A stretch of 64,000 nt of DNA from a virus, in the IMG/VR virus record IMGVR_UViG_3300042988_001700, positions 34,489 to 98,488 of that record. One strand, 5' to 3'. A program made the position numbers and the translations under genes. Positions 3,459 through 57,700 of the stretch are shown here, one piece after another. The notes beneath the pieces were generated by a model. The model was not told the DNA's origin. It searched no databases and saw only the letters and a list, made by a program, of their open reading frames with translations. Position 1 is the first letter of the stretch; every line of letters starts with the position of its first letter.

Positions 3459-4547
3459 TTAAATAAAATTCAAATTTATAGGTTTATTCAGGTAGTCATA
3501 ACAGAACTTATTGGTCGAATCCAACCGGCAGGACCCGCGACACTGCTTGTGGACATCGAAATTGTCTCGCATCTTGGATATCACATCCCAATAGTGCTGG
3601 CTCTCGAATATTGTCTTCAATGAACTCTCATGCACATTCCCGAACTTGTAATCTTTGAACTCGGGCTTATCTCCGAACATGAATCCGCACGGATACCAAT
3701 CGCCATTACCGCTAATTTCAGAGATAAATGGAACACTCTTGCATCCGGTGTACGGGCGAACGCCTTTCTGGTGCATTATATTCCACTTGACTATGACATC
3801 TGTCTTATTTGTTGATAGGCGCTCACACATCATTAGTGCCTGCTGCGTTTCCGGGGAATCATATTCCTTTAAGTCGAAATTTCCGATTCCTGATTCATCG
3901 TCCGGGATAGAACACTGCTTGATAACGAAGTAATCAACGCCAAGGCCAACTGCTAATCTCGACTCCAGTACCATTTCTTCTCGCATTGTGGTTGGAACGA
4001 ATACCGACTGCATGCCAATCTCGCAATCGTATTCATATTTCATCTTGACGCGAACGATCCTCTTGATATTCTCAACTACCTTGTCAAAATAGTCTCTCCC
4101 GTGAACCTCATTGTATCCCTCCCTTGTCCCGGCGCTGATACAGAAGCGCATCCACTTGCACGAAGAAAGAATTTTGTGACACTTTTCCTCGTCGTTTATC
4201 AAAAATCCGTTTGTCGATATCGCCATATCAAGCCCGATGTTCTTGGCAAGGTCAAGAGCGTCATACAAATACGGATTGCAAGTCGGCTCCCCGTCACCAA
4301 TAAAAGCTATCGACTTTACCCCGATGTCCTTTGCATCCCATATTGTTTGAAGCAGCGGCTCTTTTTCAATGAATACCTTTTGAACATCTTGATATTTGCC
4401 ATAGCAGAAAACACATGCCACATTACAGAATTTAGCAATTCCCATATCAATGTGTATAGGCGCAACTCTCCTGCCCTTGTCAAAATGTTCAATAACTCGG
4501 TCCATGTGCCATAGCAGTTTAGTAGAATCGTGCATTCTCTTGTCCAT
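3459..4547 (-). CDS. radical SAM protein with SPASM/twitch domain
   Basis: CNVACVFC (CxxxCxxC), GDGEPT, STNG, C-terminal GDWYPC...GNV...CxxxC. Confidence 0.92.
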   Translation of the reverse strand: MDKRMHDSTKLLWHMDRVIEHFDKGRRVAPIHIDMGIAKFCNVACVFCYGKYQDVQKVFIEKEPLLQTIWDAKDIGVKSIAFIGDGEPTCNPYLYDALDLAKNIGLDMAISTNGFLINDEEKCHKILSSCKWMRFCISAGTREGYNEVHGRDYFDKVVENIKRIVRVKMKYEYDCEIGMQSVFVPTTMREEMVLESRLAVGLGVDYFVIKQCSIPDDESGIGNFDLKEYDSPETQQALMMCERLSTNKTDVIVKWNIMHQKGVRPYTGCKSVPFISEISGNGDWYPCGFMFGDKPEFKDYKFGNVHESSLKTIFESQHYWDVISKMRDNFDVHKQCRGSCRLDSTNKFCYDYLNKPINLNFI

Positions 4548-4747
4548 TAAATATGCCTTTCCGGGATATCGTTCATAGGAATAACCGTGTGATTCTCGTC
4601 CTCATAAACATCTTTTGGCGTGCAGCTCTTTTCAATATCACTCAGTATTCCCCGTGACCAAGCTGCAAAAAACACTGCTACGGCAGCGAACGCACCAACA
4701 CCAATACACAAAACAACAACTCCGTCAGATATCCGATCCATCACCAT
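4547..4747 (-). CDS. small membrane protein
   Basis: one hydrophobic helix; coupled to neighbours. Confidence 0.5.
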   Translation of the reverse strand: MVMDRISDGVVVLCIGVGAFAAVAVFFAAWSRGILSDIEKSCTPKDVYEDENHTVIPMNDIPERHI

Positions 4748-5087
4748 CCCCCAATAGTTTTTTTATATATCCACAACGCTCAGCGAAACGCTCTAAAAGT
4801 CTATTGTTGTTAAATGCTATGAATAGATTTTCCAGTTCGGTATGAATTTTATTAAACTTTTTTTCGTTAGGAAAACTTGTGCTCACCGGAACACTATCGG
4901 GAGACTTGGCTTTGTAAAAACGATGTGTTTTTTTTGCAATGAGTTTTGGATTTACGTGAGTATTGCATTTGTAAAATTCTTCTCCCGGCGCATTTATATC
5001 ACCAATAATATCATCGACACCATTGGCTATATCAGAAATAAATTTTGCGCTATTATCAAGCTGGGATAGTTTTGCTTTTTTCTTCAC
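4725..5087 (-). CDS. hypothetical protein
   Basis: ORF packed into the operon. Confidence 0.55.
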   Translation of the reverse strand: MKKKAKLSQLDNSAKFISDIANGVDDIIGDINAPGEEFYKCNTHVNPKLIAKKTHRFYKAKSPDSVPVSTSFPNEKKFNKIHTELENLFIAFNNNRLLERFAERCGYIKKLLGDGDGSDI

Positions 5088-5688
5088 TTTTCATTCCCTC
5101 AAATATTGATAGAACTTCATTGTTTAACAATGATGTATTGGCTGGATCAATGATCCATCTCCCATCAAGAAACTGTATTCCAAGCTTATCATCATAATTA
5201 CAGACAAGGCGAAATTTTTTATCCACACGGAACTCTCTGCCAGCCTCAAGTCGCGAATCAAACTTTGGAATAACAATCTGTTCTCTCATTATCTTCTCAT
5301 TCCAATCATTGACGGCATCTTCCATAGTATCTTTAGAGTCTGACCGCAGGTAACAATCTGCTCTTCCGCAAAAAACAGCGTATCTTACCTTGTCAGAGCA
5401 CTCTGATTTTTCTACCTCAATATGCGGGGAAATTCCACAATGACAAAGCATTTTTGGAGTATAATCTTTCAACGTTTTATCCTCTTCCTCTTTCTTTTTC
5501 TTTTCCAAATACAAAATATTATTATTCCACAAAGCAACTGCTGAAGCAATGGAACTTTTGCTTTCTGCAATAATTCCACAATTTTCATTAAGGCACATAA
5601 CAGTAAACAAAGAACTTTGACCAAACACCTCTTTTCTTTTACAAACGTTCGGCGTCGATCCGCAAATACATTTAGAAACATCAGCCAT
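5056..5688 (-). CDS. tandem Lar (restriction alleviation)-like zinc-ribbon protein
   Basis: two CxC...CxxxxC...AVxxWN units. Confidence 0.55.
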   Translation of the reverse strand: MADVSKCICGSTPNVCKRKEVFGQSSLFTVMCLNENCGIIAESKSSIASAVALWNNNILYLEKKKKEEEDKTLKDYTPKMLCHCGISPHIEVEKSECSDKVRYAVFCGRADCYLRSDSKDTMEDAVNDWNEKIMREQIVIPKFDSRLEAGREFRVDKKFRLVCNYDDKLGIQFLDGRWIIDPANTSLLNNEVLSIFEGMKSEEKSKTIPA

Positions 5689-22844: not shown

Positions 22845-22875
22845 ATTAACCTCCGTATAAAAATTGAATTACTAA

Positions 22876-22988
22876 ACTTTGTTGGTGCGCCCTTTTGAAC
22901 GGCTTTTAAGCACCGTCTACTATTTATGGACCCGTTAACTCCCGGCCCACGGGCCAAGTGGCGGGATTAGAGCACACCAACGAAATTT
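22876..22988 (-). ncRNA. structured RNA motif, copy A
   Basis: 13-bp closing stem GUUGGUGUGCUCU/AGGGCGCACCAAC with G-U pairs on the minus strand; core shared with the copy at 25.6 kb. Confidence 0.55.
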
Positions 22989-23006
22989 AACACCAGCAAA
23001 ATCTAT

Positions 23007-23079
23007 AGTCCCCCACCGGAATCGAACCGGCCCGTCACGGAAGTACTACCTCCGATTCCATCACCAGAATGTGAAGGAC
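23007..23079 (-). tRNA. degenerate tRNA-like cloverleaf (anticodon position AGT, no CCA)
   Basis: acceptor GTCCTTC/GGGGGAC, D-stem ATTC/GAAT, anticodon stem CGGAG/TTCCG with 7-nt loop GTAGTAC, T-arm GCCGG-TTCGATT-CCGGT; lacks U8 and a canonical D-loop. Confidence 0.5.
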
Positions 23080-23201
23080 ACACATTGACACCTTGTGTGG
23101 TGCGGAACACGCTACAGAAGAGCCTTTGACCATCCACCACCAAAGGAATCAGAGCATCGGCAGTTGGAGTCAACCGTTTCCGCACCATACAAGGCACCAA
23201 A

Positions 23202-24848
23202 CTATTCAAAACAAACACTGTTAAATCCATTTTCACAATTAACACCTTCAAGCCAATACCGCGTGTGCCAATTGTGGATCTCAACGCGCTCAATAGTGTA
23301 TTGAGATCCAACCTCCAAAACACCACGCGGATCTGAAACGCTGCTAACCTTTGCCTGTTCGTCGCTGCAACCAGTATAAGTTACAACGCTTCCGCTATCC
23401 TTAATTCCTCCCATAATCCCTCCAGATTAAATTTACGCTGCCGGAAAAGTGTCTTGTGGTGCGCCAGTCTACTTTTCCCCCGCGCACAGGATATTTAAGC
23501 AGCAACAATACAAATATAACTTGTGCCAATTATAATTGCAACTTAGTTATGGGAGTATCTTCAAAAACATGATACACGAAATTTCCATTATCCATCTGTA
23601 TTGTTCCAACGTATTCACCTTCCATTCTTTCTCGGGATTCTCCAGTAACGTAAATCGTAAACGTGCGCTCCTGCTTAATAACTGAATCGGTGTCTGGGAC
23701 TAAAAACCATATAGCAGCTCTTTCTTTTTGGTTTTGGACACATAATATTTTTGATCCAATCGGAACAAATATAAAGTTCTTTTCGGGATGGTCTAAATAA
23801 AACTTATAAATTGATTTCATGAGCACTCTCCTTAGTGTGGTATTTTGTGGGTTGGAGGAAAATACACGATGTCCATATTAAATTCACGTTCTGACATAAC
23901 GTCTATTGTTATACTAACCCCTTTTGACAAAGCATATTCTTTTACTTCATCCGGAATTACACTTTCCTTTGGAAGCAGCAATGTACTTCCTTCTAAAGGC
24001 AAGCGTTTCGTTTCGTAAAACTCTACTAAATCATCGATGTATTGTTTGTTTATTAACATTAAGCAACCTATTTTATTTTTTGACTTTTCTATACATTGGA
24101 TAGTACGCTGTTTTATTCCAACGTTTTCCAACCGAAACAGTATTTCCAATAACTTTAAAAGAATCCTCTCTTGCAACATAATCGTCGGGAAGAATAACAT
24201 CCCCCTTGCGTAACGCAATATAGGTTGGGTCTTCGGGATATGAAATCTTCCTTTCGCGGATTCCTTCAACCACAGGCAGCACAGCATCTCCACCGCCAGC
24301 GACCAAACCAGCCATATGAAATTGGCGCAACTCTATATCACTAATAGCAAACCATTCCATTTTACTCTCCATTCTCCATTTACCTACAATTTAATACCCT
24401 TCGAACTACACAGGTCAGTAGGGTCAAGGCACAGACCAGATTCGGTTGCGCTACGATAACGGCAAATTGCATCAGGACAACCGCAAGTTCTATCTACAAC
24501 TACTTGGCTTCTCGATGAATCGCAAGTTATCTCTTTGCCGATCTGTTTAATCCACCCACGTACCTGGCGAGCATCACGGCCATTTCCGGCACGATCGCAC
24601 CCTTTTGAAAAAGCCTCCATATCTTCAAGCATTTTTTGTATTTTTGTGGCTGGTGCCGGAACAGAAATTCCTTTCGGCTTAGATTCCTTCTGACCATTGA
24701 CCCACACCTGCAATAATTCGATAATGGCATTAGCGTCGTTAGTGGACTCTATATTAACGGCGGTCCACTGATACCCGTTGTGGGTGATACGAAGACACCA
24801 ATCGCCATACCTATCACATTCCATTTCACACCTAAACTTGTTCGACAT
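23202..24848 (-). CDS. small hypothetical genes (23202-23414, 23530-23826, 23832-~24059, 24073-24372, 24384-24848)
   Basis: RBS-preceded ORFs in tandem. Confidence 0.5.
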
Positions 24849-24851
24849 ACA

Positions 24852-26244
24852 CTAAACCCCTTTATTGTTACTTAACTGTCTACTCCACCGCTCTATGTGA
24901 GCAGAGGCATGTATTGGTTCGCTATCGGCATGTTTTACAGCAAAATCGTGCATCTCGGAAGAAACCTCCAATGCGCTGTTGTGCGATAAGTTTTGAACAA
25001 CCGCCAGTTCTGCGCGAATTGCTTCCATCGCCCTGCGCAAAGCCATTGGCCTCATTTGTGGAAGCTCGACATCGACTATCTCAAGTGCTTTTTCTAAGTT
25101 CATTCCCATGAGCGCCTCCGAACATAAAAATGACAAAAACTTTCAACCAACGTTCCGCAAACCCGCAAGCCGTATTAAAGTGAAAACCTGCTGCCGCACT
25201 CTGGACAGAAATTCCACACGACGCTCACTCCACTCCCACCACAAACCTGACATGGCTTGAATTGCGTGTTAGGCGTAGTGCCCAACTCCACAGTTTTAAG
25301 AGCGCGAATTTGATCGCACAAAATAGCAAAGTTGTCATAATGATAAGCCATAGATTGACCGAGCGACTCTCGAACCTTGTTCTCCGCCACCATACCATCG
25401 CGCTCTGTTATCAAAGCCTGTAATTCTATAAAGTTGTTTTCCACGATCGCGCTCCTATAAGTTAAAGGAATTTCGCCCAACGTTTTCCGCACTCCAGAAC
25501 GTGAGGTATTTTACCAGTAGAGCTACCCCGCATTTTGGGCTGCGGTTGTTGTAAGATGTATGCGGTTCTTCCATAATTTTCAGCGCGGCTAATACTCGTT
25601 CTACACTTTCTCCGGCAGTGTTGCCATCATGGGACCCGTTAACTACGAGATGTTGGTTATCCCCTTACGGGACAAGTGGGGGCCGCGCCTACAATTTCAA
25701 AGAACCGCATATTTCTTACAACGTTCAGCCAACACTGCGCGACAGTTTGCGCGACGGATGCACTGAACACTCCGCACCCATACACGCACCGTTAAATCGC
25801 ATATACCCACAATTCTTACCATATAAAGCGCAAATTTCGACGCTTGGCTTGTTGGACGCTGCAAACTTTTTTTCCAAATAAAGCCAGGCCGCTTTCGCTG
25901 CTTGTTTCTGCGCAATAGGATAGCACAGCCAATCGTGTTTTTGCTTCCACCACTCTTCGAAACGCTCATCTTCAGCGGCCATAAGAACTCCAAAGAAAAA
26001 GTTTATTGCATTCCAACTTGACAAATGTATGCCGTGCTTACACTACTGGTTTCCATTTAGCACAAACACCTGCCTGCATGCTACATTCTTTATTGCCACA
26101 ACTGATGCAGCATGGCATACTTTGTTTGTTGGTTGACTGTTGAGCGAGTACAGCGGTTTTCAGAGTTTGCCACTCCTCGCAATCGCGAACAAGAACGTAC
26201 TGTGATAAAAACTTTTCAAACATACCAACCTCTATGTCTAACAC
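24852..26244 (-). CDS. cassette ORFs 26038-26244, 25725-25982, 25175-25444, 24852-25109 (hypothetical; three have Cys-rich tails)
   Basis: GGAG RBS before each; C-termini encoded by the attC-like hairpins. Confidence 0.6.
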
Positions 26245-26304: not shown

Positions 26305-27903
26305 TTAACCACATTTAATTTCAATATCATCAAAAACAACCGGAATCAACTCTTTAAACTTTTTAAGCATCGGAATCGTAAGCTCAAGCATCTGAGGATG
26401 TGGCTTTCCACTTTCCCCGGCAGCACGCAACTTAAAAAACTTGCGCCACTCCCTCAAATTTGCAGTTAAAAACATCTCGGTCTTTGTGCTCCTATTCAGG
26501 ACCGACCGCGCCATCTGGGGAGATTCACCAAGCTCTATCAATTTAAGATAGCTCTTTTCAGCGCTCTTGCACGCATCAATCCATACCGAAGCCGATTCCG
26601 GGTTCTTAAAATGCTCAATAGGATCAATGAACGTAACTGAATTATCAAATTTGTCCTTTGAATAGTTGCAGTTATGAACAACGACACCGTTAGACACAAA
26701 ATTTTTAAAATCAGACATAACAGACACATCATAAACATCTACAAACCCAACCGATTCTATTGATACAATTTTATCAAAAAATATAGTTTCCAAATTTTTC
26801 GAATGAATTCTAAAATGACACGAAGCACAAGTAGTTATTAAATTCTCTACAGCATTATTATTGCGATCACCATCTACGTGATGAACATTTAGTCCAGTTT
26901 CAGAAGAGCATATTTCGCATTTGTTTTTTTGTATTTTTCTATAAGACCCTTTTCCAAGTTTATACAATCTATCTTTTTTTTGTTTTCCAGTATAACGACC
27001 CTCATTCCAATGGTTTTCACGTAAAGAATTTATTTGTCTTTTTACCCTTTCGTCCGAACCGTCCAACCCAGCGTTCCAAGGTTTTCTGCCAATATTAAAA
27101 TAGCTTTTTGGTTTTTTTGGCAACTTATGTTTTCTAACCCAACTCTTAATAGCAGACAACCCAAAGCCAAACTCTCTACTTATATCTACTGCCGTTTTGT
27201 TCAACACATTATACTGGTTATATAGCCAATCCCTGTTCTTATAAAGAAGACAAGACCCATTTACGGCGACGCATCCACCAACAAGCAACTCCTTGACTGC
27301 CACATATCCGTAATCAGTATATATTTTATGATCAGCAGTAGCTACAATAGAATACCCCAAAAAAGTATTTATTTTAATAACAGGCTTTACTCCAGAATAA
27401 AAAATATCGTTGATTTTACAAAATTGCAACTCTCCAGTGCGCTCATTATATTGACGTATTCCAATTCTTTTCCACGAACCATTACAAGAATTTATCTTCT
27501 TTTTATACAAATCACTTAGCGTTAATCCATAATGAGGATTTTTTGTGGTTAGTTTCATGTTTCCAGCAACACAGTATCTCGTACTTTCTTGCGATACCCC
27601 CGGATTCCATTCCATATCGAATACAAAATCGTCATCAACATGGACAAGCCGATGCCTAGTCCACTCCTGGCTCACGCCAAGGTCGCAAATAACCTTGACA
27701 CTAACAGAAACATGCTCAAGCATCGATTCGTGCCCACCGTCTATCGCGTGACTTTTAACAAAAGAATACGCAGGGTTTATTCCCGGCAAACAACCATCTT
27801 TAGAAGACTTGTAACAGGTCCTTCCGGCCTCCTCAATATGATTAAGAGCAATAAATCCCGGAAATAACATTTTTACAGTGAACTCAGAAAGCATAATATT
27901 CAT
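26305..27903 (-). CDS. thyX: FAD-dependent thymidylate synthase with intein
   Basis: GHESMLEH, RHR...SQESTRY|CNY, ARSVL...NLREWRKFFKLR...HPQM; likely start MNIMLSEF at 27903. Confidence 0.93.
   Translation of the reverse strand: MNIMLSEFTVKMLFPGFIALNHIEEAGRTCYKSSKDGCLPGINPAYSFVKSHAIDGGHESMLEHVSVSVKVICDLGVSQEWTRHRLVHVDDDFVFDMEWNPGVSQESTRYCVAGNMKLTTKNPHYGLTLSDLYKKKINSCNGSWKRIGIRQYNERTGELQFCKINDIFYSGVKPVIKINTFLGYSIVATADHKIYTDYGYVAVKELLVGGCVAVNGSCLLYKNRDWLYNQYNVLNKTAVDISREFGFGLSAIKSWVRKHKLPKKPKSYFNIGRKPWNAGLDGSDERVKRQINSLRENHWNEGRYTGKQKKDRLYKLGKGSYRKIQKNKCEICSSETGLNVHHVDGDRNNNAVENLITTCASCHFRIHSKNLETIFFDKIVSIESVGFVDVYDVSVMSDFKNFVSNGVVVHNCNYSKDKFDNSVTFIDPIEHFKNPESASVWIDACKSAEKSYLKLIELGESPQMARSVLNRSTKTEMFLTANLREWRKFFKLRAAGESGKPHPQMLELTIPMLKKFKELIPVVFDDIEIKCG
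26671..27573 (-). mobile_element. ThyX intein (301 aa) with HTH and HNH endonuclease
   Basis: STRY|CVAGNMKL ... ATADH ... CEIC...VHHVDGDRNNN...NLITTCASCH ... VYDVSV...NGVVVHN|C. Confidence 0.92.
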
Positions 27904-28502
27904 CGTACACCAACCTCGTCGGACAACAAGAGTATTAACGCACTGATCTTTCCCATACAGTCCCAAGCCTTCCTGATGTGCGCCTGAATGCTTCCGCGAC
28001 TATTTTCACCAGCAGCACTTCTAACCACGGTCAACTTCTCTGATTCTATTTGATATATAAGGCACAGCCTTTCACACGCTCTAACAACACTGGTAGTGTC
28101 TTGATATTTATTAAGCAATAACCAGTGCATATAGCGTATCTGATCATCACAATCCATTTCAGCCGTCTTCTTGTATAAAACATTCGAATACAATAGCGAC
28201 CGAACAGCGGCAATATCACGATCGAATTGGTCTATAACTATACCCTCCGGGCTTTTTGGATCTATTGTCACCATCCGCATAGACACATTGGCAGAAGGAA
28301 CAGCGACCGGATCTTTTTTTGCACGATCAAGCGCAATAGAATCATCAAGACGCTTCTTTTCGACAGAAGCCTTATAAGCAGCTTCAGCATCACCAAAACC
28401 AGAAACATCGATAGCAGGAACGCGACGATTCATAACCACCGAACCATCACCAGAGAAAGACACCAACGAAAAGCACAAAACAAACAAAAAAACCTTAAAC
28501 AT
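27900..28502 (-). CDS. exported hypothetical protein
   Basis: signal-peptide-like N-terminus, GGAGG RBS. Confidence 0.6.
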   Translation of the reverse strand: MFKVFLFVLCFSLVSFSGDGSVVMNRRVPAIDVSGFGDAEAAYKASVEKKRLDDSIALDRAKKDPVAVPSANVSMRMVTIDPKSPEGIVIDQFDRDIAAVRSLLYSNVLYKKTAEMDCDDQIRYMHWLLLNKYQDTTSVVRACERLCLIYQIESEKLTVVRSAAGENSRGSIQAHIRKAWDCMGKISALILLLSDEVGVR

Positions 28503-34266: not shown

Positions 34267-34772
34267 TTTTTACCAACTTTCCTTTTGGTTGATTTTTTTG
34301 GTGGAAGAGATGTCATTTTGTTTTTTAACTGTCGTTTTTTATGAAATTCGTATTTTAAAGCATCGGAAATTCTTCTGGCATTGTCTTTTGAAATACTGTA
34401 TGCTATCATCCCAGAATCAATATCCCTCAGAGAATCTTCCTTTCTCTTTTCTTCTAACCGAATTCGCTCGATTATGAGTCCCTTTAAAAGAACAAGGTAA
34501 TTAATTTCGTCGCCGAACTTCTCGTCAAGCATAGCCATTGTGGGCAATATTCCGTTATCGATATCATCAATGATATCTTCGACGGAAACGCAATGCTTCT
34601 CCTTCATTCCGGCGAGTGCTCTTTCTGGAGAAATATTCCTGCGGCGGCCAGCAACTTTGAAATTGTGAAACCTTTCGCCATTGCGAACATATTCTCCAGT
34701 TTTCTTTTGTAGAGACGACTTCATCTTTTCGATGCAATCATCAACAATTAAATTAAAGTCTTCATTGTTCAA
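34263..34772 (-). CDS. hypothetical phage protein (possible nucleotide-modification-associated family)
   Basis: KTGEY...FHNF...DEINYLVLL. Confidence 0.5.
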   Translation of the reverse strand: MNNEDFNLIVDDCIEKMKSSLQKKTGEYVRNGERFHNFKVAGRRRNISPERALAGMKEKHCVSVEDIIDDIDNGILPTMAMLDEKFGDEINYLVLLKGLIIERIRLEEKRKEDSLRDIDSGMIAYSISKDNARRISDALKYEFHKKRQLKNKMTSLPPKKSTKRKVGKK

Positions 34773-45763: not shown

Positions 45764-48700
45764 TTAATTATTCCTCCCCTTGTATGTTAAATTGTACCAT
45801 GCGTTTGCTCTTCCGAGCTGTCTTAACTCGCGCGGAGCCAGGGAAGCTATAAAGTGGTTCCTGTATTTGTCCGGCAACGCGGCTAAAGGATCTGCGTTTC
45901 GAATGCTTGTGCTTATGCCATCTATCGTACCTCCTGCTTTAAGGTATTCTTTAAGCCAACGTATAGCTGACTTCTGGTCTTTATACACTATCGATTTCTT
46001 ATAATAATATAGTGCATTCGCCTTGTTTGTTGGGTCATTTTGATTGACTTCATACTTGTTGTCGTCAAGGAATTTATAAACCTTTGATTTTATCTCCTGA
46101 TAAGCCGCTTCGCCGGGATCTGTGATATAAACAACGGCAGTCGGAATACTGTTGATAAAACCCTTGCTTGGTTTTCCGGCAAGATACCTATACGGGATAT
46201 CCATAGCCATCGTTCTCGCAACATTCTCCCATGGATCTCGTATCGGGGAAGGATTAAAAACATTCGGGTAAAAAGATTTCTTTGTCAATAACTCAACGGG
46301 AGACTTGATCATTGGCGTCAAAGATGTCCCGATTCTCTGGAATGGGGCAACCGCCGCCTCTTTGATCATATCAGAAAACTTCTTGGAGCCGCTTGCAAGG
46401 TCCGAAACGTCATAGGGCAGGTCTTCTAAGCCTATCCACGAAAGCGCGTCAGAAAGCGCCCCTTGGAATCTTAAGGAGGCAATTGTCCCATCGCTTCTTC
46501 GTGACGTCAAATTTCCGTTCGCCAGCTCTTCGATATTCGGCAATAACAAGTGCGCTTGCCGTCTCCGCTGCATAAGCTCTTCTTTTTCGTCATCCGGGAA
46601 TAATTGATTCCAAAGCATGACCGCTGCATACAGAGCGCCAGCTTTAACCATAAGCATTGCCGAAGAGAATGCGGCGTTCTTCCCAAGAATTGCTGCGCTC
46701 GTAAGACCAAGTTTCGCGGTCCTGGCTGCACGGGTTTTTGAATCACGGTCCCCTTCGTGCGGAGCGTTTTGCATTAGGCGATAGTATCTTGGTGCGTTTA
46801 TTTCAAGCCAGCTATAAAACGGAATTAGGTACCTTCTAAGCCACTGGCCGCCTTTCGATATGTTGCCGTAGTCTCCAATAAGCTCACGCGCCAGCTTTGC
46901 CGCCTTGTCATCTTGGTCTGTGATTTTTTCTATCGCCAGCCTGTTGGATGCGCCGAACGTAGTATCGGGATACTTCTTGAGATGATCGACAAAAAATCTA
47001 TAAGCAGCAAGCCTCAAAATATTTTCTCTCCATTGAGTGAAATTCTTGGTTGTCTGCCAATATCTTTCGATCATACCGACTTTTTCTCCCGAGAGAATCT
47101 TAAGGAACATGTCTTTGTTCAAATCAGTTATCTCGCTAACCGAAAGCCCGGAACTTATTACGCCTTTTTTGATAAGTTTCAACATTTCTTCTGTCGGTGC
47201 TTTCCCCTTAAGATTGTAACCCCAAAGGTCTTTTGCTGCTTTTTGAGCATAGGCCATTATTTTTGGGTCATAAGCCATAGCGATATCCAAATCCCCAGAC
47301 ATATTATTGATATTGTACTTAATAACACTCGGAGGATTGAGAAGTCTCCAAATTTTCCAAGAATTTTGGATTTTTTGAAGTGCTTTCGCTATAAAATTGT
47401 CAATCGGGAAATCAACAACCTTGTCAAGCGTAGCTGCAAGTTCTGACGGCAATGCCCACGATTGGCGTTTTCTCAGGGCAAGCAATGTCTGAAGATCCTG
47501 TTCCTCTACAACCTGGCTCCCATTTTGATCTATTTGAGAAGCAATTTTGTCAGGAATAGTTGTCGCTTCGTACATTCCAAACCCTCTCTTTGGCTGCCAT
47601 TCGACATATCCTTCAGGTAAAATGTCCTGCCATTTCTTAAATTGTGCGCCGGTGGTAGATTTAATCAACTCTTTTCTTTGGCTAATTGCCTTGAATATCA
47701 TTCCGGCGTACTGTGAACCATCAAGCCCCTTGTCCATTAAATAAGAAAGAAATTCCCACCAATCCTCGTCAGATCCGGCAGTGGAATCGACATCCATTTC
47801 AACGCCACTTTTTTTAGAGAAGTATCCGCTTGACAACTTCTCTATAATCAAACTGTATTCTGGTGCATCTATTTCATCCTTTGATGCCATTTTTTCAAGC
47901 TGACTAACAGCAATGGCAATACTTTTTCGATACGGCATAAATGGATCGAACATGTCGTAGTCGGGCGATTTTTCGTCTATTCCGGCTGCCTTTGCCAATC
48001 TCTTCTTTGTAAGTTCATTATTCATTTCAGTAGCATCTTGCTTCAGTTGGCCAGATATATCTGCCACCATTTTCATCTTTTTGAGAGAATCTGCCGCTTC
48101 GAGCAATGCTATTCCTTGGGCAACAACCTCAAATTCAGATTCGGTATATTTCGTGTTGTACGGCTTATCGTATCCAACGCGACCGTTCTGCCAACCTTTT
48201 CTTTTGGTCCTGAAGTCAGAAGAAGTGGTTCCAGTTGTAAGATATTCCTTTGTTTCCATAGCTTCAATAACTTGGTGGTGGAAATATCTATCATCCTTTA
48301 ATACGTCTTCATGCAAGAATTTCTCTCTAACTAAAGATTCCCTCAAGTCCCTCATAAATCGATTTCTTAAATCAAGAGCATTAGAAATATCCGGATTAAG
48401 AGCAGCAAGCCGCATAGCCTCTTTATTATCAGCCTTGACATCGTCAATGCTTTGGTATCCAAACGGAAGCTTCTTTGGTGTTCCGTCAGGAAATGTATAT
48501 AATCCGGATTCGATGTCTTTCAGAAGATCGGGTAGTATTATGTTTCTTTCGAAAACAATCTGCTTTTTAGGACCCATCCCGGCGATAATGCCTTTTACCA
48601 CATTGTATGCACTCGCCTTTGAGAATTCTGGAACAGACTCAAAGTGCCTTAAAATATCTATCTCTCGCGCAAAAACAACCGGGTCAAGAAGAGGATAGTG

Positions 48701-51700
48701 GCGTGTCATATCGTTTTTGGCAGTCGTAATAGCCGCCATTGTTTTAGCGTAAATGGTATTCAGGTTCTTTTGGAGACCACGGGATTCATTCATTATTTTG
48801 TCAACGTTTTCGTCAACCGACTTGAACCCGCCACCTTTGATATTATATTTGGCTCTCGGTTCCCACAATTGAGGGGTATTTTTAATGTTTTTAATTGACT
48901 CACCATTATTAGTGCTCGATCCACGCGCATCTCCAAAACCCAAAACACCAATTTTTCGAGCGCTATCATAAGATCCGTCTTTATAAACATAAACAATGTC
49001 ATGTGTTATATCATATTCCGGTTCAGAAGACGACCGAGTGCTTTTAATTATTCTCGAACCAGTCATAAAAATTTTTCTATCATCGGTTGCAATAACTGCC
49101 CAAGTCCCACCAGATTCTCTTACTCTCTGATAGACTCTGCTTGGAGCTAATTGCTCTATTCCTTTTATTGGATACCAAGCTACAACCATATTTTGATTGT
49201 CTAAAACAAGAAGACTTGTATGGTTTTCTCCCTGAAAAGTATCGCGTGTTAAGTTGGCAACGTCGATAGCCTGTCTTATTTGTGGTCGATTTCTTGTCGC
49301 TTCGTTAAAGTCTTCTTTTGGTATATCAAAACTTATTGTTTGAGCAGTAGGTAATCCTCTGTGATCAATTTCTTCACCAATAAACAAGAATCTGTCATGA
49401 TCAAGAACAACATGCCCAGAAAAACCGGGAATATTATTTATAAAATATTTTGTTATAAACTTGTCGGGATCGCTTGCTTCCATTCTACCTGACGGGTGAT
49501 TATGAACAATGAAATACTTTGTTGCTCCAAGTCTTTCCATTCTATTTTTTATAATGTAATTATTTGCAGAAAGACCAGTTCTGGTTCCTACTACAGAACT
49601 ATTTGTCAAACCAGAAGACATTGCGTTATGCGCAAGAATTTTACCGTTATCATCAGTATAAATAATGTGGAAATGCTCAATTCTTGGATGGCGGAACACA
49701 GAAAACATATTGGCAAGTTCGGTCGCATTATTTATTACCCTGCCGCGAAAATCGATTCTTCTATGTTTCTTCCAATCCCCGCGAACAGTTGTTGCGCCAG
49801 CCTTACCGAGAACAGGAGAAATAGGCGATTTAGAAAATTGGTTTTCTATTTCAGTATTTGCTTTTTCAACTTCCTCTTTCGACCCAAACACTATTTCAGT
49901 ATCATTTTTCGACATCGGGGTTCCAAAATCCAACTCTGTTTGCACACCCCAATCTTTCAAGAACTCCCTTTGTTCGAACAGCGATTGCCCATTATAAACA
50001 ACGTCATTTTTAACGGCGTCATTAATGGCTATCGATTGCTGCGAAACGCCAGTGCCGATATTGATATTCTCAACCTTCAAACCCCACGGCTTTCCGTACT
50101 TTTCGTAAAACTGAGAAATCTTTTTATCATAAAGATTATAAGCCCAATCTCCACCGACACTAAGGCTTTCGCCGTCCAGCCTTGTCCAATCCCTGTATGC
50201 TTTATCTTTTACTTTTGTGCCTTCCGAATTAAATATTCTTTTTGAGATATCTTTTCCAAGAAGACGAGACACCTCTTCAATGCTTAAATCCTCTTTATAA
50301 ATGCCGTCGTTTTCGTCTATGTGTGGTGCATCGATATTATAGGTTTCATCGTCGTTCTTTTCCCAATCGATATATTTTACCTGCTTTTGCAAGTCATATC
50401 TATCTGCTGTCTGCCTTCCAGTTATCCACGAAACTTTGTCGTATCCATTTTCGGATGCGTAACGCAATGCAAATTTGAGAACAACGTCCATCCAGTTATT
50501 TGCGAATGGCATAGGAAGAACACCTGGGCCATAAGACTTTTTGAATTTTTCAATAGCCTCTTCTCGCGTATCTCCAGTTACAAAATCAATACCAGATATA
50601 CCGGCTCTCCACTTATCTCCAGACTGAAACACCCTATCGGGAACTCTATTTGTTGCTGCCACATTCCCTTCGCGCAATTCTTGGGACCATTTTGACTGTA
50701 TTTCCTCAAGGAAGAGAACTTTGTTTCCTTCGCTATCGGTTCTATCGTCCATGCGAATGTGGGCATAAACGTTTTTTCCGAGACCATGTGGTTCATCGTA
50801 TTCAGCAAACATTCCAAATGTGTCTTCTGGCAACGAAAGAGTAACTTCTTTATAATTTTGATATCCCGGCAATGTTAGATCGTCGTATTTGTTGGGGCCA
50901 TATTTCGTTTTTCTTGGTTCATATTTATCGTACCATTCTTGTGCAAATTTTTTTGCAGCATTAACATCAGATTCATTCTGTATAAATTCTTTATTATAAT
51001 AAATAGCAAAAGAATCTTCCAATTGCCCAATCTTTCTGATTTTTATACTCAAATTTGTGTTCGAGTAAATAATAGGGCCACTAAGTTTATTTGGTTCTTC
51101 CCATTCTATTTTTGGTATATCATAATCATTAACGGCTATTTTAGAATCAATCATGTTTCCGCTGATGAATTTAATTATTTCGTCTTTTGTGACCGATTCT
51201 TTTCCTGAAAACTCTTGAGACAATCCAATCCAATCAACCTCCGCTTTTTTTACTCCGGGCTGATTGAGAATCATAGCGACAAGCTGACTTCCAGTTCCCT
51301 TTTCCTGTTTTAAGTCTTGTGCTGCACGGAGTAGGGGAGAATAAAAATAAGGAACGGCAGACCGATACTCTTCGACCGAAGCGTATTTTTTAATCTTTTC
51401 AGGATATTTTGCGGGAAGCTTTTCGCGCATTTTGTTTAGTCTATCACCAACGTCACGCGGATCTCGCGTATAGAACGTTCCAGTCGTAACTGGATCGGAA
51501 AAAGACAAAGCAACAACCCGGTCAGCTATTCCAAGCTGGGGGCCATCAAAATGTATTCCGTATTTGTCGGCTGCTTGCTTTGCCTGTTCAATAAGACCCT
51601 TGTCAAGCTCGCTAAACTTTCCTTCTTCTGAAGCCATCTTTTCTGCGCGGTCTTCTTCGTAATCAACAATATCGCCATAAGGACTTCCCGGCTCGAACAT

Positions 51701-54700
51701 AACACCATTTTGATTCAAGAATCCTTTAATATCCTCTTTCGATACGGTCTCGTCGCCTTTGCTGGAAAGATAATCTGAAAGTCCAGTGAATTTCATTTCA
51801 TCCATTTTTGTTCCGCGACCGCTTGAAGGATCGAGCATCTTGAGCCACTGGCTTGCGGGAGCCTTTGGCATATCGATAGAATTGACTGCTTGCATAGCAT
51901 TGCTATACAATGATTCTCTTGCGCCATAAGAAGCGCCAGGTTCTCTGAACATGTTGGCGGTATCGGTTGAATATTCGCCACTATTATTTGTAGCCGACTT
52001 TATTTGTTTTGGATTAAAAGCAATATAGACATCTGACAACGGGGCACGCTTGGTATCTGTGTAAGTGTCTTTTGTGTTTCTGATTATTATTCCGTCATAA
52101 CCATTTTCTTTTGCAAATTCAATCTGTTCTCTTTGAGCCTTCGGACCCCCGCGCTTTCCCCACTCAACGCCGCCAGCGTCAATAACCATTGGGTTCTTAA
52201 GCGAAAGATATACTCCAAATACACTTGGCTCTGCGTTTTGATAATCAAAAGCCATTTTGTCATTAGCGTATGTTCTGGCAGTATTGTTGTGGTTTGTAAA
52301 AAAATACGCTCTTTCTTTTAATGTATTAGTCTGTCCTTCGGGAGAAAGAGTGTCAAAATATTGTTCTTTAGCGGTTTTAAACACCCCGTTTTGTTTTACG
52401 TCTCTTGCGTCAGGAGTTCCGTGATAAACAACCAGCGGCATGCCTAAATCATCAACGACTTTACTTGCTGTTTCCGAATTTGATTCCCAATCGCCAAACC
52501 ATTTTTTAAACTCTGTTGATTGAATATCTCCGCCATAAGAAGCGCCAGGCTCAAACAGGCTCAACTGTTCTGTTCCGCCAACTATTCCGGCACCACCTTC
52601 GAACATAGGAAGGCCAGTAACGTCTGGCGATCCACCGATACGCTTTTCGTTTTTCTTTCGAATCTCAGCGGCAATAGCTTTTTGAACAGGGGTTCGCTTA
52701 TCCTCAAAACCAGTTCCAGAGAATAAGTCACCGGTTTCGTACTTTGATTTTGGCTCCTCCGTAATTAGATCGTCGTTGACTAACCCTTGATACGGGCTAA
52801 TCATTTTTATCGTTGCGCCAATTTGAGGAAGGCTATCGTCAATGAACTTGTTGACATTGTCCTTTGCCTTATTTGATGATGACGACGGCGCGTCGGTAGC
52901 AGTAAGGTCCTTGACTGCCTTATGGACAAGAATCATTTCTTTGATAGAATTAATTCCAGCTTCGTCTTCGAATGGAATAAACCATTTTTTATTCCAGCTA
53001 CTAATGTATTCGCTAAACGCCCCGTATCTTTTGAGTTCGTCAAGATTAGGAGACCATAAATTTCTAAGCTCAATACGCGGCTGGTTGTGAACGTTAACCG
53101 GCGCTATTTGCCATCCGTTATCAAGCTCAACTATTCCATGGTCGTACTTCACAAGATTAAACAGCTCTACTGCCGACAATTGCGAGAAAGAATTCCCAAT
53201 ACCAAGCCTTAACTTTATACCGGCAATTTGTTTCTGTTTAAGGCTTATGCCAAGATATGTTTCGTTATCTCCAGTTGTTGCCTGAACAACGGTCTGTTTT
53301 TCGTGAGAAGCAAAAGCAGAATCGTTGTCAATTTTTTTAGGATAAATCTTATCGTAAATTGGATAAATAATCCCGGTAAGAATAGTATGCTTTTCCGTTG
53401 TGTATTCAGGAATTTCACTTAGTTCCTTTTCCCAAAGAACCTCCGCGTCTCCGCGATTAACTTCCATGAGACCATGATTAAACTCTTCGTTATCCAGACT
53501 ATGTCTTATTCCCTTTGGATTCGTTAGCTGATATACTTCTTTCTCTATTCCATTTGTAGTAATTTTTACCGTAATAACAGAGTATATTCTTTTGCTTTTA
53601 ACGTTCTGATAATATCCAACCCAATAATCAGTGAAGTCTTGAATATGAGAAACCTCGAACGACAATTTATTGCTTGGAACCTCACCGGCCAAGTATACCA
53701 AGTGCGTTTTTGCCTTCGAAATTGGATCTACATAAATCAATTCGGCAGGCTTGTCTATTCTAAGGTTCTTTGCACGTATCTTTTGAACACCAGAATCGAA
53801 ATTTCCCTTTGCTTTAGCGTTTGCAATATTCTCTTGGTATTTTTCATAAAACTTTTCAAACACTTCATTTTGGCGGCCAATTGGAAGAACGAGTATTCTA
53901 TTAAGAAATTTATCTACAGTTACGTCTTCTTTCGCCTCTCCCTTTTTGTTTAACAAACCCATTTCGGCAAGCGATTTTCTTGAAAGTCCAGTAATGACGC
54001 TTTGTAATGCGTTTTCTCCGTATTCGTCGGTAAGATCCTCTATTGAGAACATTCCACCACCAAGAGACTCTCTGTTCCCGCTGGTCATAGCGCCAAGGCT
54101 GGCAAGCCTACGAGACACTGCATTAACAAGTCTTTCTTGTCCCTTGATATCTGTTTTAACCAGCTTAATAATCGGCGGGACTTCTTGGTTTGATCTATGA
54201 ACCCTACCAAAAACCTGCATCTGAGTGTCTGCCGACCATGATAATTGCATTGCGTAAAATACGCGCTGCTGCTTATTTTCTGCCTTTTTATCGGAATGAA
54301 GCGATATCCCGGTGGATGCCGCTGCCGATATGATTGCTACACGCTTCTTTCCGCTCTGAAACTGCTTAGTTTCGTACTCGTTGACATCCTTCGACGTTCC
54401 ATTCTCGTTTATTCTTCTGACATATTTTTGGTTTTTACCAACACCTTCAAGCCTCATTTTCCTTCCGGATATTTCAGCAATATTATCGGCACCAAAAGCA
54501 TTGACAATCCTATCAAAAGGATTCGGAGGAAGGTTCAAGTTTGAAATAATCTCAAGAAGTCTTTGCTGTTCCTGAAAGTTTTCTCTGTTTATTACCGGTT
54601 CCCCTTGCGCGTCAAGCTCCATAACTGTTTCGTCTTTGCCGGTAACAATGTTCTTTTGTGTTACATATTGATATATCGGAAAACTTGTTTTTACCATGCT

Positions 54701-57700
54701 GGCAATCATGTCTTTTGAACTAAAATCCATGTCGTCAATATCTTCAATTCCACTTGCCTTTGCTGCGGCAACGCTTTTCTTGGTCAGTCCCTCGTTCGTG
54801 CTAAACATGCTGATAACAACTGAGCGCCCTGCCGCAAGCTGTTTTTTTGCGTCATTAACAACCTCGTCATACTGAAGAGAAGTCATTAACTGCAAAAAGA
54901 ATCTCTGTTGAGTAGAATAGAACGCCGTATAATGTCCAGATCCTTTTTTCTTTTTCTCACCCGAATTTTCGGCAGCATTCTCAAACGCAACCAATAACTT
55001 CGACCACAAATCCGCTGCATCATTATATACGTTTCGCTCTCCCTCGGTAACGTTGTGCTGTATTGTCTCAAATTTTACCCCGGCATAGCTAATTGATCTG
55101 CTTATATAAGATCCTATAGCCTTAAGGTCTCTTGTAAGCGCCTCCATTGCGCCAAGCCCACCGCGCGTCATAGCTGTCAGGAAATCCATGAAATCAGTAA
55201 ATGGAGCACCGGCACCCCACATTCCAAGTCTACTTAAATAAGCCATGTTTCGCGCAACCGTAGCAGACGTAGCCGACATATTGAATATGCGTGCGTTCTT
55301 ATACGCTTTTTTAAGCATAAGACCGACATTCCCGCGCTCTGAACCTGCCTTTGAACTTGCCTCTCCGCCGATACCAGCACCAACGGCGTTTTTCATAAAA
55401 TGAGATTCGTCGAAGACAATAACGCCGTCGAAGTCGTCTCCAAGCCAATCTTGTATTTGCTTCAATCTCGCCTGAGTAGAAATTCCATTTTTATCTTTTT
55501 CGCTTCCCGACATAAGTCCGTATGACGTGAAAAGTATTCCGTCTTTATCTGGTAGCTTATCCCATGTTTTTGTATCGGCCTGAGAAATTACTTCCATTGG
55601 AACGCCTACGTCTGAAACGTCTCGTTCTGCCGAAGGCTTTAAATCAAAATTAACACTAATCCAAACTGCACGTTTTCTTCCGTGCATGAAATTATCATAA
55701 ATAACACCTACAGCGGTCCTACCTTTGCCGACCCCTGTAGAATCGCCTAATAAGTACTCCGCGCGTTCGCCACTTAATAATCTTTGGTTGTGTCTTTGCC
55801 CTGCATATACGATAGCCTCCATCTGAACATCAGAAAGCCTTCCCTCTTCGATAACTTCCTTTGGGATCTTTGGGGTATAAACGACATCGGGAGCCTCTGT
55901 CGCGGCAAGCGCCGTAGATTGAACGATGTTTCCCGGGTGTTTTATTGTTCCTTCAATTGTGGCTTTTTTGACAACGTAAGGAGAGTATTGCGAATCTTCC
56001 TCTTGCTCTACGTCCTTTACTCCGCCACTTCCTGGAACGCCGCTCGTTCCGTTGCCTGGCCCCACTGGACTAAGCCCATCGCTAACTGCATCGCCCATGC
56101 GCGCATCGATGATTGGTCTGTCAGTTGATTCAGGACTTCCGCTTTCGCTTGTTCCGGAAATTGCTCCGTTAGGATCTCCAATACCGCCCCGTGTATTCTT
56201 GGATCTTCCACTACCAGATCCCACTCGTCCTGTATCTCCAGAAAGTCCGGTTGTGTCTCGTTCTCCAAGAGAAGATCCATCAGGGGGATTAACGACGTTG
56301 TCTGATTGGCTGCGAAGTTTCTTTTTGTTAGATCGAACATTGCCGCCAGCTTTTCCTTTGCTACTTGATCCAGCTTTTCCGCCAATGCGTTCATTTATGT
56401 CCTCCTCTGCGATATCTTTTAACAGGTCTATAGTTCCTTCAGGCGTTAGTCCTTCAGATCGAACAACATTCGCCATTCTTTCATTTCTATTCATTCCGGG
56501 AGTCGGACCCGTTTTATCGATAATCAATATTTGATTGTCGAATCCGGTCCCGTATTTTGCGTAAGCCTTTCCGTCTATACCGATATTCGCCCGAACGTCG
56601 TTTTTCTGCTCCATCTTATCCCACCACGCACTAAACGATGGTCTTTCATGTGCCATTCCGCGACCAACGATGGCAACTAACCTACCACCATCCCTTACCC
56701 TGAGAAGGGCGTGCGTTACATGGCTTGCGCCAACTTCGGTATTATGGGAAGCTGTTCTTCCTCCGGTAGCAGAGAATGGAGGATTCATTATAACGACATC
56801 GGCCATTATTGTCTGAGGAAGATTGTTGTTCAGCTTTTCGGCGTCAACGCTATACGTTTCGAACCCCTGCATATTCAACAATCCAAGTCTTCTTGGAGAT
56901 ATCTCATTCGCTACAACCTTCGCACCGGCAATGTGCGCCATTGTCGCAATATTCCCTGTCCCGGCGCTTGGTTCTATAACGGTCATGCCTTTTGATACCC
57001 CGGATGCCCAAACAGCTATAAACGCCTCCGCTGGTGGCGTGGAGAACTGTTGGAACTCAATCTGTTCTTCAGTACGGTCAACTTGCCTCGGGATTATATC
57101 ATTAAGATCGTTAAGTCTCTTTACCGTATCTTCTGGGTTGCTGAAATCGACGATTCCAGATTCGAGTATGTATTCATTGATAGCGACTTCAAGAGCGTCA
57201 TACATGTCCCTTGGATCGTATGCGCCATCTCCCCGGGTTCCGCCAAATGAGCTGTCTGCCATTTTTGTCAACTGAGGATTCCCAAATTTTACACCGGTAC
57301 GAAGTTGCTGCTTAATAGTCTCGATCAAAGCACCGGTTCCGGGAACAACGTTTTTATCGTCTACCCGCGAAATAGGAACGTTAATAGGAGGTTGATTTTC
57401 TTTTTTGTCTCCACCTACTTTTGCGTATGTTGGAACGAAATTTTCGTAATCGTAGAATAATGTGCTTCCTTTAAATTTTAATTTCGCCGATCTTCCCGAT
57501 CCTATAACTTCTTCAACCTCTAATACATCAAGTTTGAAAAGAGTAATAGGAATTCCAACGTTCTCTCTTGCTTTCGCCAAGTCTCCAACTTTTGGCGTCC
57601 ACTCTTTAAGCATCGCCTGTGTTCTTGCGATATCTTCTTGAACCAAATCTGGATTTATTTCAACATCGTATGTCTTTTGGAAATCAGCAATACTGACATT

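Follow-up and report, generated by a model that had tools for sequence, protein, structure and literature searches.

A Double-Pseudoknot RNA Family Placed among the tRNA Genes of Uncultured Phages

Small RNAs of Phage tRNA Clusters

It has been known since T4 that the transfer RNA (tRNA) clusters of phages also contain small stable RNAs other than tRNAs; to our knowledge, the function of these RNAs has never been explained. In T4, two RNAs of tRNA-like size that are not tRNAs, rnaC (species 1, 139 nucleotides, nt) and rnaD (species 2, 119 nt), are encoded in a row with the tRNA genes, at the end of the cluster, and carry the annotation of small stable RNAs with function unknown. GOLLD and ROOL are large ornate RNAs of phages and prophages, several hundred nt long and represented in Rfam, which often lie beside tRNA genes. 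Theta ribozymes, which are minimal ribozymes of the hepatitis delta virus (HDV) type, are located at the 3′ ends of tRNAs of uncultured phages, and a role in tRNA maturation has been proposed for them (PMC10879173; Nat Commun 2024). Additionally, T4-type phages carry PeSLs, repeated intergenic elements combining a promoter with terminator stem-loops in variable early regions, which have been proposed to mediate the gain and loss of small gene modules (PMC2839356, PMC4122927). This article deals with a further structured RNA, carried on the minus strand of a 64,000-nt stretch of DNA (the window) that covers positions 34,489 to 98,488 of IMG/VR virus record IMGVR_UViG_3300042988_001700. The record, which comes from a freshwater metagenome, is a complete genome of 98,488 bp with direct terminal repeats, and the window is its right-hand 64 kb. 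Two elements of the window, copy A and copy B, led to a family of 17 distinct long-form sequences of ~105-117 nt in uncultured phages, which share a fold with two pseudoknots and mostly fill the space between two tRNA genes. Copy B is a full-length member, and copy A appears to be a shortened relative.

Two Elements and Their Family

The minus strand carries every gene between 20 and 30 kb of the window, the adjacent tRNA too. On this strand the word CCACUUG(G/U)CCCGU occurs at 22949-22961 (copy A) and 25667-25679 (copy B), and a second word, AGUUAACGGGUCC, at 22928-22940 and 25632-25644 respectively. Each of these 13-base words is found exactly twice, with the order conserved, and neither the window nor the whole 98,488-bp record contains a further occurrence; we estimate a chance expectation of ~1e-8 in this genome for two words of 12-13 bases recurring in the same order and on the same strand ~10-25 nt apart. 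The closing helices of the two copies are unrelated in sequence. A preliminary description of this DNA had reported two elements with common words inside closing stems of differing sequence, and both observations are borne out.

Exact and relaxed two-block patterns drawn from copies A and B gave no match in viral and metagenome contig collections; the versions of the words seen in A and B are specific to this phage. The phage itself showed no close kin in IMG/VR. Megablast of a 10-kb region against phages returned no match; at the protein level no relatives were found for a 154-amino-acid open reading frame (ORF) and the DnaB helicase, and DUF7352 gave one distant locus. A sensitive blastn search of copy B against GenBank phages returned one match of 43 nt, in the 636-kb uncultured phage LR756504.1, where the homolog fills exactly a 112-nt gap from tRNA-Val to tRNA-Gly in an array of six tRNAs. 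Copy B and this homolog align over 112 columns without a gap, and 26/26 pairs form in both sequences, 14 of them compensatory. New search patterns were redrawn from the three sequences, with the words UUAACGG, CCGU, CUU and CCAU fixed, and retrieved ~20 further loci (IMG/VR records, near-identical copies in metagenome contigs and one contig of a metagenome-assembled genome). Model R1, built from copy B and the LR756504.1 homolog only, scored the pattern-found loci at 38-84 bits (E 3e-7 to 3e-19), including the regions that the patterns had left free; since these scores cover regions that the patterns did not constrain, the loci are taken as true homologs. The carriers of the resulting family include complete genomes of 288, 288 and 430 kb, the largest phage being that of 636 kb, and five other records searched in full hold one copy per genome. 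A blastn search of three family members against 50,697 GenBank phage records recovered only the uncultured LR756504.1 and no cultured carrier.

The membership of copy B was supported by an independent test, since model R3, which describes the 5′ domain and was trained on 16 sequences of other phages with no window sequence among them, picks copy B out of both strands of the whole window (38.8 bits, E 7e-9). R1 also matches copy B, and model R2 scores it at 105 bits. In Rfam 15, nothing in the window reached the gathering threshold and nothing overlapped the elements at E up to 10; copies A and B searched singly gave noise of 8-13 bits, and eight related loci gave tRNAs only. Additionally, nothing like the family was found in the literature searched. 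The preliminary description had supposed an undescribed structured RNA of the minus strand, in agreement with both the Rfam scan, which matched no known family, and the homologs, in which the compensatory pairs described below are better than in any of the shuffles. We regard it as very nearly certain that this structured RNA family is real.

Fold and Covariation

The consensus of the 5′ half reads P1c - S1 (ACCCY) - loop GCUUGU + YCCGU - S1′ (GGGGU) - UAUAAAG - P3, and that of the 3′ half ARUUA - ACGGR - RCCCAUGAUGG - P4/P5 - CCGAAGAAA - P5′ - AAAG - P3′ - P1c′, which gives the helix order P1c-S1-P2-S1′-P3-P2′-P4-P5-P4′-P5′-P3′-P1c′. Two H-type pseudoknots are contained in this order. In the first, YCCGU of the S1 loop pairs with ACGGR to form P2, whose 3′ strand sits within P3, so that P2 crosses P3; the second consists of P4 (GGY/RCC) and P5. 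Copy B forms P1c, S1, P2, P3 and P5, and its parts are the following (all on the minus strand).

25582-25689, minus strand: copy B, long-form (full-length) family member, matched by R1, R2 and R3
25689-25682 / 25589-25582, minus strand: closing helix P1c, 8 bp (GGCGCGGC / GCCGCGCU)
25681-25678 / 25664-25661, minus strand: S1 (CCCC / GGGG), the stem of the 5′ pseudoknot hairpin (25661-25681)
25671-25667, minus strand: CCCGU, the 5′ strand of P2, in the S1 loop (ACUUGU + CCCGU)
25635-25639, minus strand: ACGGG, the 3′ strand of P2, pairing with the S1 loop, with AGUUA before it and UCCCA after it
25649-25645 / 25599-25595, minus strand: P3 (CUCGU / ACGAG), enclosing the 3′ strand of P2 and the 3′ pseudoknot
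25625-25623 / 25616-25614, minus strand: P4 (GGC / GCC) of the 3′ pseudoknot
25621-25617 / 25607-25603, minus strand: P5 (ACACU / AGUGU) of the 3′ pseudoknot (25603-25625)
25700-25722, minus strand: 5′ arm (RNA sense) of an outer helix, overlapping the last 8 codons and the stop of ORF 25993-25697
25548-25570, minus strand: 3′ arm of the outer helix, a ~23-bp duplex with the 5′ arm below an internal loop and P1c

The pairing was assessed on two alignments. On the model-fitted alignment 94.9% of the cells are paired and 17 of the 22 pairs show changes on both sides, a result reached by 0/500 shuffles, and when the partners are slid by one column the pairing falls to ~50%. On a MAFFT alignment that is blind to structure (P2, P4 and P5 treated as pseudoknots), 89% are paired with 12/21 pairs compensatory, again with 0/500 shuffles as good, and all four P5 pairs of this alignment covary. 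P2 is absent from every model structure and is paired in 17/17 sequences, its outer pair being C-G in 2 and U-A in 15. The pairing of CCCGU with ACGGG noted in the preliminary description therefore stands, as a pseudoknot stem and not as a simple hairpin. S1 varies by compensation across the family (CCCC/GGGG, ACCAC/GUGGU, ACCG/CGGU, ACCA/UGGU), as does P5 (ACACU/AGUGU, CCUAU/AUAGG, GUCU/AGAC, GCUUG/CAAGC, ACUC/GAGU, ACCU/AGGU), and all 5 pairs of P3 have changes on both sides. P4 consists of two invariant G-C pairs and a third that is C-G, U-A or unpaired. Additionally, ~30 unpaired positions are conserved in the family. G-U pairs are present in P1c, S1 and P3; as the other strand would have A-C mismatches in their place, the constraint acts on the RNA of this strand and not on the DNA. 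Other structural readings were abandoned: P4 as a 4-bp hairpin stem and a tertiary RCUU/AAGY pairing, both replaced by the covarying P5, and a K-turn at AUGAUGG/CCGAAG, in which inspection showed that the required G-A after the bulge is absent.

Copy A and the Short Forms

Copy A lies 18 nt downstream of a tRNA-Thr gene on the same strand. It is located where the preliminary description had placed it, with a closing helix that spans 22874-22988 and not 22876-22988.

22874-22988, minus strand: copy A, putative short-form relative, with the two 13-base words in common with copy B
22988-22972 / 22890-22874, minus strand: closing helix (AAAUUUCGUUGGUGUGC/GCGCACCAACAAAGUUU), 17 positions of which 16 are paired, with one C-A mismatch
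22965-22960 / 22947-22941, minus strand: S1 (CCCGCC / GG(C)CGGG)
22953-22949 / 22935-22931, minus strand: P2 (CCCGU / ACGGG), followed by UCCA
~22920-22898, minus strand: single hairpin of the 3′ part, replacing P3, P4 and P5

The closing helix has 2 G-U wobbles on the minus strand, and the folding energy against shuffles is -49.7 kcal/mol (z -3.6) for this strand compared to -38.2 (z -1.9) for the plus strand, in agreement with the strand that the preliminary description had chosen from the G-U pairs. By inspection, copy A keeps the closing helix, an S1 of other sequence, P2, the AGUUA linker and UCCA, and lacks the linker between S1 and P2′ as well as P3, P4 and P5. We read it as a shortened paralog and partial relative of copy B, because the exact pair of 13-base words is far beyond chance and because of its position next to a tRNA.

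Four other loci (L015, L017, L020 and L023) are short-form candidates. They follow a tRNA-His or a tRNA called with a four-base anticodon, and they show compensatory S1 (CCGGGG/CCCCGG), P2 and P3. L015 and L020 reach 10-14 bits with R3, which is no better than chance pattern matches, and for this reason they are not counted as proven members. Directly upstream of the candidate in L020 (L020:1789-1863, minus strand), ARAGORN calls a tRNA with the four-base anticodon AATA, possibly a tRNA resembling frameshift suppressors, possibly a miscall. The pattern matches L014, L018/L024, L019, L021, L022 and L046-L048 were set aside as chance, having no tRNA, no S1 or a mismatched P2; they still score 14-19 bits with R3 because the patterns had selected the words of R3. 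R1 also gave weak matches in the 636-kb phage (E 0.2-9), which are not near tRNAs and resemble noise.

Placement among tRNA Genes

Most members start 0-8 nt past one tRNA and end 0-5 nt before the next, a placement referred to here as the tRNA slot (some neighbour tRNAs are missed by ARAGORN and detected by the Rfam tRNA model). The flanking tRNAs vary (Val/Gly, Ile/Val, Ser/Ser, His/Arg, His/Phe and Asn/Met), which indicates that the RNA is not tied to one tRNA. L029, a locus of 12.1 kb, has 22 ARAGORN tRNAs on one strand plus further Rfam tRNA matches, and in this very dense array the RNA occurs exactly once, between tRNA-Ile and tRNA-Val.

Two members, copy B and L034, have no adjacent tRNA, which argues that the RNA works alone and not only as an aid to tRNA processing. 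Copy B has a 23-bp outer stem instead; the underlying inverted repeat of 23 nt (21/23 complementary) is best read as an extension of copy B's own closing helix, and by its look the outer duplex would be an RNase III-type processing stem. In L034 (L034:1045-1155, plus strand) neither a tRNA (within 3.5 kb) nor an evident closing helix is present, and P3 is followed by UAUUUUUUU, a U-run; this RNA may end at an intrinsic-terminator-like site.

Several protein genes were observed near the tRNA arrays of RNA-carrying phages (L028:2588-3538 and 4052-5173, plus strand; L029:8450-10075, minus strand). Near the arrays of some loci there are genes for Ro60-like proteins (TROVE + vWA), a Pnkp-like kinase/phosphoesterase and a T4 Rnl1-type RNA ligase, none of them universal, and GIY-YIG endonuclease genes lie within arrays (L029:10387-11022). 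The Ro60-like gene occurs close to the RNA in one cluster of four loci (L029, L031, L032 and L041), two of which, L031 and L041, have identical elements. The bacterial Y RNA (YrlA), the partner in Ro60 systems, was considered and rejected, with no TROVE match in the phage of the window and no YrlA match.

Comparison with Known RNAs

T4 rnaC and rnaD are the closest known things by context. There is no homology between them and the family: the T4 RNAs lack the S1 loop, UUAACGG and P5, R2 gives noise on the T4 region, and rnaC ends in a tRNA-like T-arm whereas the double-pseudoknot family has none. Theta ribozymes are likewise small, pseudoknotted and located directly at the 3′ ends of phage tRNAs, but the family is ~110 nt long, is closed by its own termini and has another helix order. 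In HDV the helices follow the nested order P1-P2-P3-P3′-P1′-P4-P4′-P2′ with the cleavage site at the 5′ end; membership of the HDV-like or theta class was rejected because the helix order of the family differs from it. GOLLD and ROOL resemble the family in being phage-borne, structured and often next to tRNA genes, and differ in size; the family at ~110 nt matches neither Rfam model.

The tRNA-like structure of plant tymoviruses has a pseudoknotted acceptor arm that ends in CCA. A similar strand order is seen in the family (hairpin stem, loop strand, return of the stem, loop partner, 1-2 nt and CCA), but here the CCA is internal with ~45 nt after it and no mimic of the T-arm or anticodon arm is evident; the resemblance is no more than a lead. 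PeSLs are by description many per genome, whereas the arms of copy B are unique in the window and part of a structured RNA. 5S rRNA was also rejected, as no 5S match was obtained at E up to 10, the shared short words stand in another order and the GAUGG region forms P4/P5.

Possible Function and Alternative Explanations

We think it rather probable that the RNA is a stable trans-acting molecule with a protein or ligand as its binding partner, and that it is excised by tRNA-processing enzymes or by RNase III. Under this proposal the RNA would be transcribed together with its neighbours, and the RNase P and tRNA 3′-end enzymes that free the neighbour tRNAs would release it with paired ends; it is the placement in the tRNA slot that suggests release as a discrete molecule by the tRNA-maturing enzymes, and excision of this kind is, taken by itself, also reasonably probable. 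In the single-tRNA phage of the window, the lengthened closing helices (17 positions in copy A; 8 bp plus the 23-bp duplex in copy B) would act as excision stems, with RNase III-type cutting of a duplex of about two helical turns replacing the tRNA neighbours as the means of excision. The released RNA would be stable and act in trans, and its knotted core with the conserved unpaired bases would bind one particular protein or small ligand, probably with a connection to tRNA or translation. A decoy role related to tRNA or translation is one form that this could take, although we judge it unlikely. Several points weigh against the proposal as a whole. Both the processing by RNase P, Z or III (from the layout alone) and the binding function are inferred. 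No RNA run holding the sequence was found, the matching source reads being DNA contigs only, and no conserved partner gene appears in the flanks, none being common to all loci or to the window. The invariance of UUAACGG, CCGU, CUU and CCAU is partly imposed by the search patterns, which did not fix the helices. Additionally, R1, R2 and R3 all miss copy A in the window (E up to 10, filters off), so that the link of copy A to the family would consist of the two shared 13-base words and the same layout beside a tRNA.

An explanation at the level of DNA would make copy B an attC-like recombination site or a miniature mobile element with the 23-bp inverted repeat as its boundaries, and the shared words would be sites at which proteins bind the DNA. 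It takes up the preliminary description, in which copy B filled most of an attC-like cassette without a substantial ORF and was supposed to be mobilised as such; there is indeed no credible ORF in the unit, and the ends of the inverted repeat (GTTGTAAG...CTTACAAC) resemble attC core sites. Another contig of the source sample (depth ~11) has both 22-nt arms with one mismatch each, surrounding 169 nt (compared to 135 nt here) that do not align at 80%, and a third contig (depth 39-47, against 29-35 for the phage) joins 25552 to 25992; its joined stretches are 25532-25552 and 25992-26017, and the skipped 439 nt comprise ORF 25993-25697 and copy B. However, the matches behind these joints are 21-26 nt long, a length at which other organisms are often the source, and the complete 98-kb genome has no tyrosine recombinase (PF00589) in a search whose positive controls were detected in 14/14 genomes. 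The 22-nt arm sequence (<=3 mismatches) is found in the window only as the two arms of copy B, the next-best repeat being 76% alike over 25 nt; thus there is no array of like attC sites, and the reading of copy B as a mobilised attC cassette is not supported. Family members elsewhere do without such arms and have only short closing helices between tRNAs, and the helices are kept by compensatory changes with G-U pairs that are valid on one strand only. The DNA-element explanation is therefore largely refuted, and we give it almost no credence. The source contigs may instead reflect a diverged homolog together with gain and loss at the level of modules among co-occurring phages, as for PeSL-bounded modules.

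The remaining alternatives concern what the RNA does. A module acting in cis, whose rigid fold would separate tRNAs or genes, guide processing or block exonucleases with no function after release, agrees with the constant position of the RNA between other genes of one transcript, with the long closing stems of this phage, which look like processing sites, and with a further structured element and a tRNA in the same run (see below). It appears unlikely all the same, since a spacer needs neither ~30 conserved unpaired positions nor two pseudoknots across phages with unrelated flanks, and since a single copy per genome, even in arrays of at least 20 tRNAs, does not suit general punctuation of an array. 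Likewise, the compact multi-pseudoknot fold with many conserved unpaired bases, and a start 0-8 nt past a tRNA 3′ end in most members, as in the reported context of theta ribozymes (PMC10879173), would be expected of a self-cleaving ribozyme that cuts polycistronic tRNA/mRNA precursors as a functional analogue of theta. This is distinctly unlikely: the outermost strands of the 5′ and 3′ sides pair with each other without the P1/P2 nesting of HDV, a search at E up to 10 matched no ribozyme model of Rfam, host enzymes already set both ends where tRNAs flank both sides, and next to copy B and L034 there is no tRNA that would need processing. An aptamer that sponges up or senses a nucleotide signal used in host immunity (c-di-GMP was one idea) or a tRNA-related metabolite, for instance, draws its sole support from the riboswitch-like conservation of the junction and the pseudoknotted architecture; with no expression platform, no consistent downstream gene and no matching riboswitch family, we hold it to be very unlikely. 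Finally, the RNA could serve the phage in counter-defence or take-over of the host, as an acceptor-end decoy, a new class of self-cleaving ribozyme or a sponge for nucleotide signals, a proposal that we rate as rather unlikely. In its decoy version, the pseudoknotted helix with CCA may mimic the acceptor end of a tRNA and soak up a host enzyme or toxin; the targets may be attackers of tRNA 3′ ends or anticodons. Expressed from the tRNA array, the RNA would be made and matured along with the phage tRNAs.

Local Surroundings in the Window

The gene run that contains copy A has the order ORF, structured element, tRNA-Thr and copy A, and its further features are listed here.

23513-23541, minus strand: sigma-70-like promoter match TTGCAA-17-TATATT (consensus match only)
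23091-23194, minus strand: further structured element directly upstream of the tRNA, with a ~22-bp closing stem
23007-23079, minus strand: tRNA-Thr, anticodon AGU, the only ARAGORN tRNA in the window

On the basis of this arrangement, a single transcript from the promoter match could cover ORF 23414-23202, the element at 23194-23091, the tRNA and copy A. The stretch 23085-23200 (116 nt) folds with -47.7 kcal/mol (z -3.8, 0/200 shuffles as good); the element within it has no Rfam match, and its sequence is unlike the double-pseudoknot family. In Rfam the tRNA-Thr gives only a weak match of the tRNA clan (tRNA-Sec model, 19.4 bits, E 2.7). Elsewhere on the minus strand of the window, a thymidylate synthase gene (ThyX) at 26305-27966 is split by an intein that carries an HNH endonuclease (Pfam Thy1, Intein_splicing and HNH), and 45764-63340 is a single ORF of 5,858 codons, very large for a phage of 98 kb.

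Concluding Remarks

To the small stable RNAs of phage tRNA clusters, these results add a well-defined family, with 17 distinct sequences, a double pseudoknot backed by covariation and a precise placement in the tRNA slot. A fold of 110 nt so intricate and conserved usually means catalysis or the specific recognition of a protein or ligand, and the family can be synthesised and offers a concrete object for structure probing, ligand screens and pull-downs. Copy B no longer lies among tRNAs and has acquired a long outer duplex; this suggests that excision is needed whatever the neighbours, and hence that the RNA acts in trans. More generally, the family may point to tRNA arrays as expression platforms for hidden non-coding RNAs of phages.

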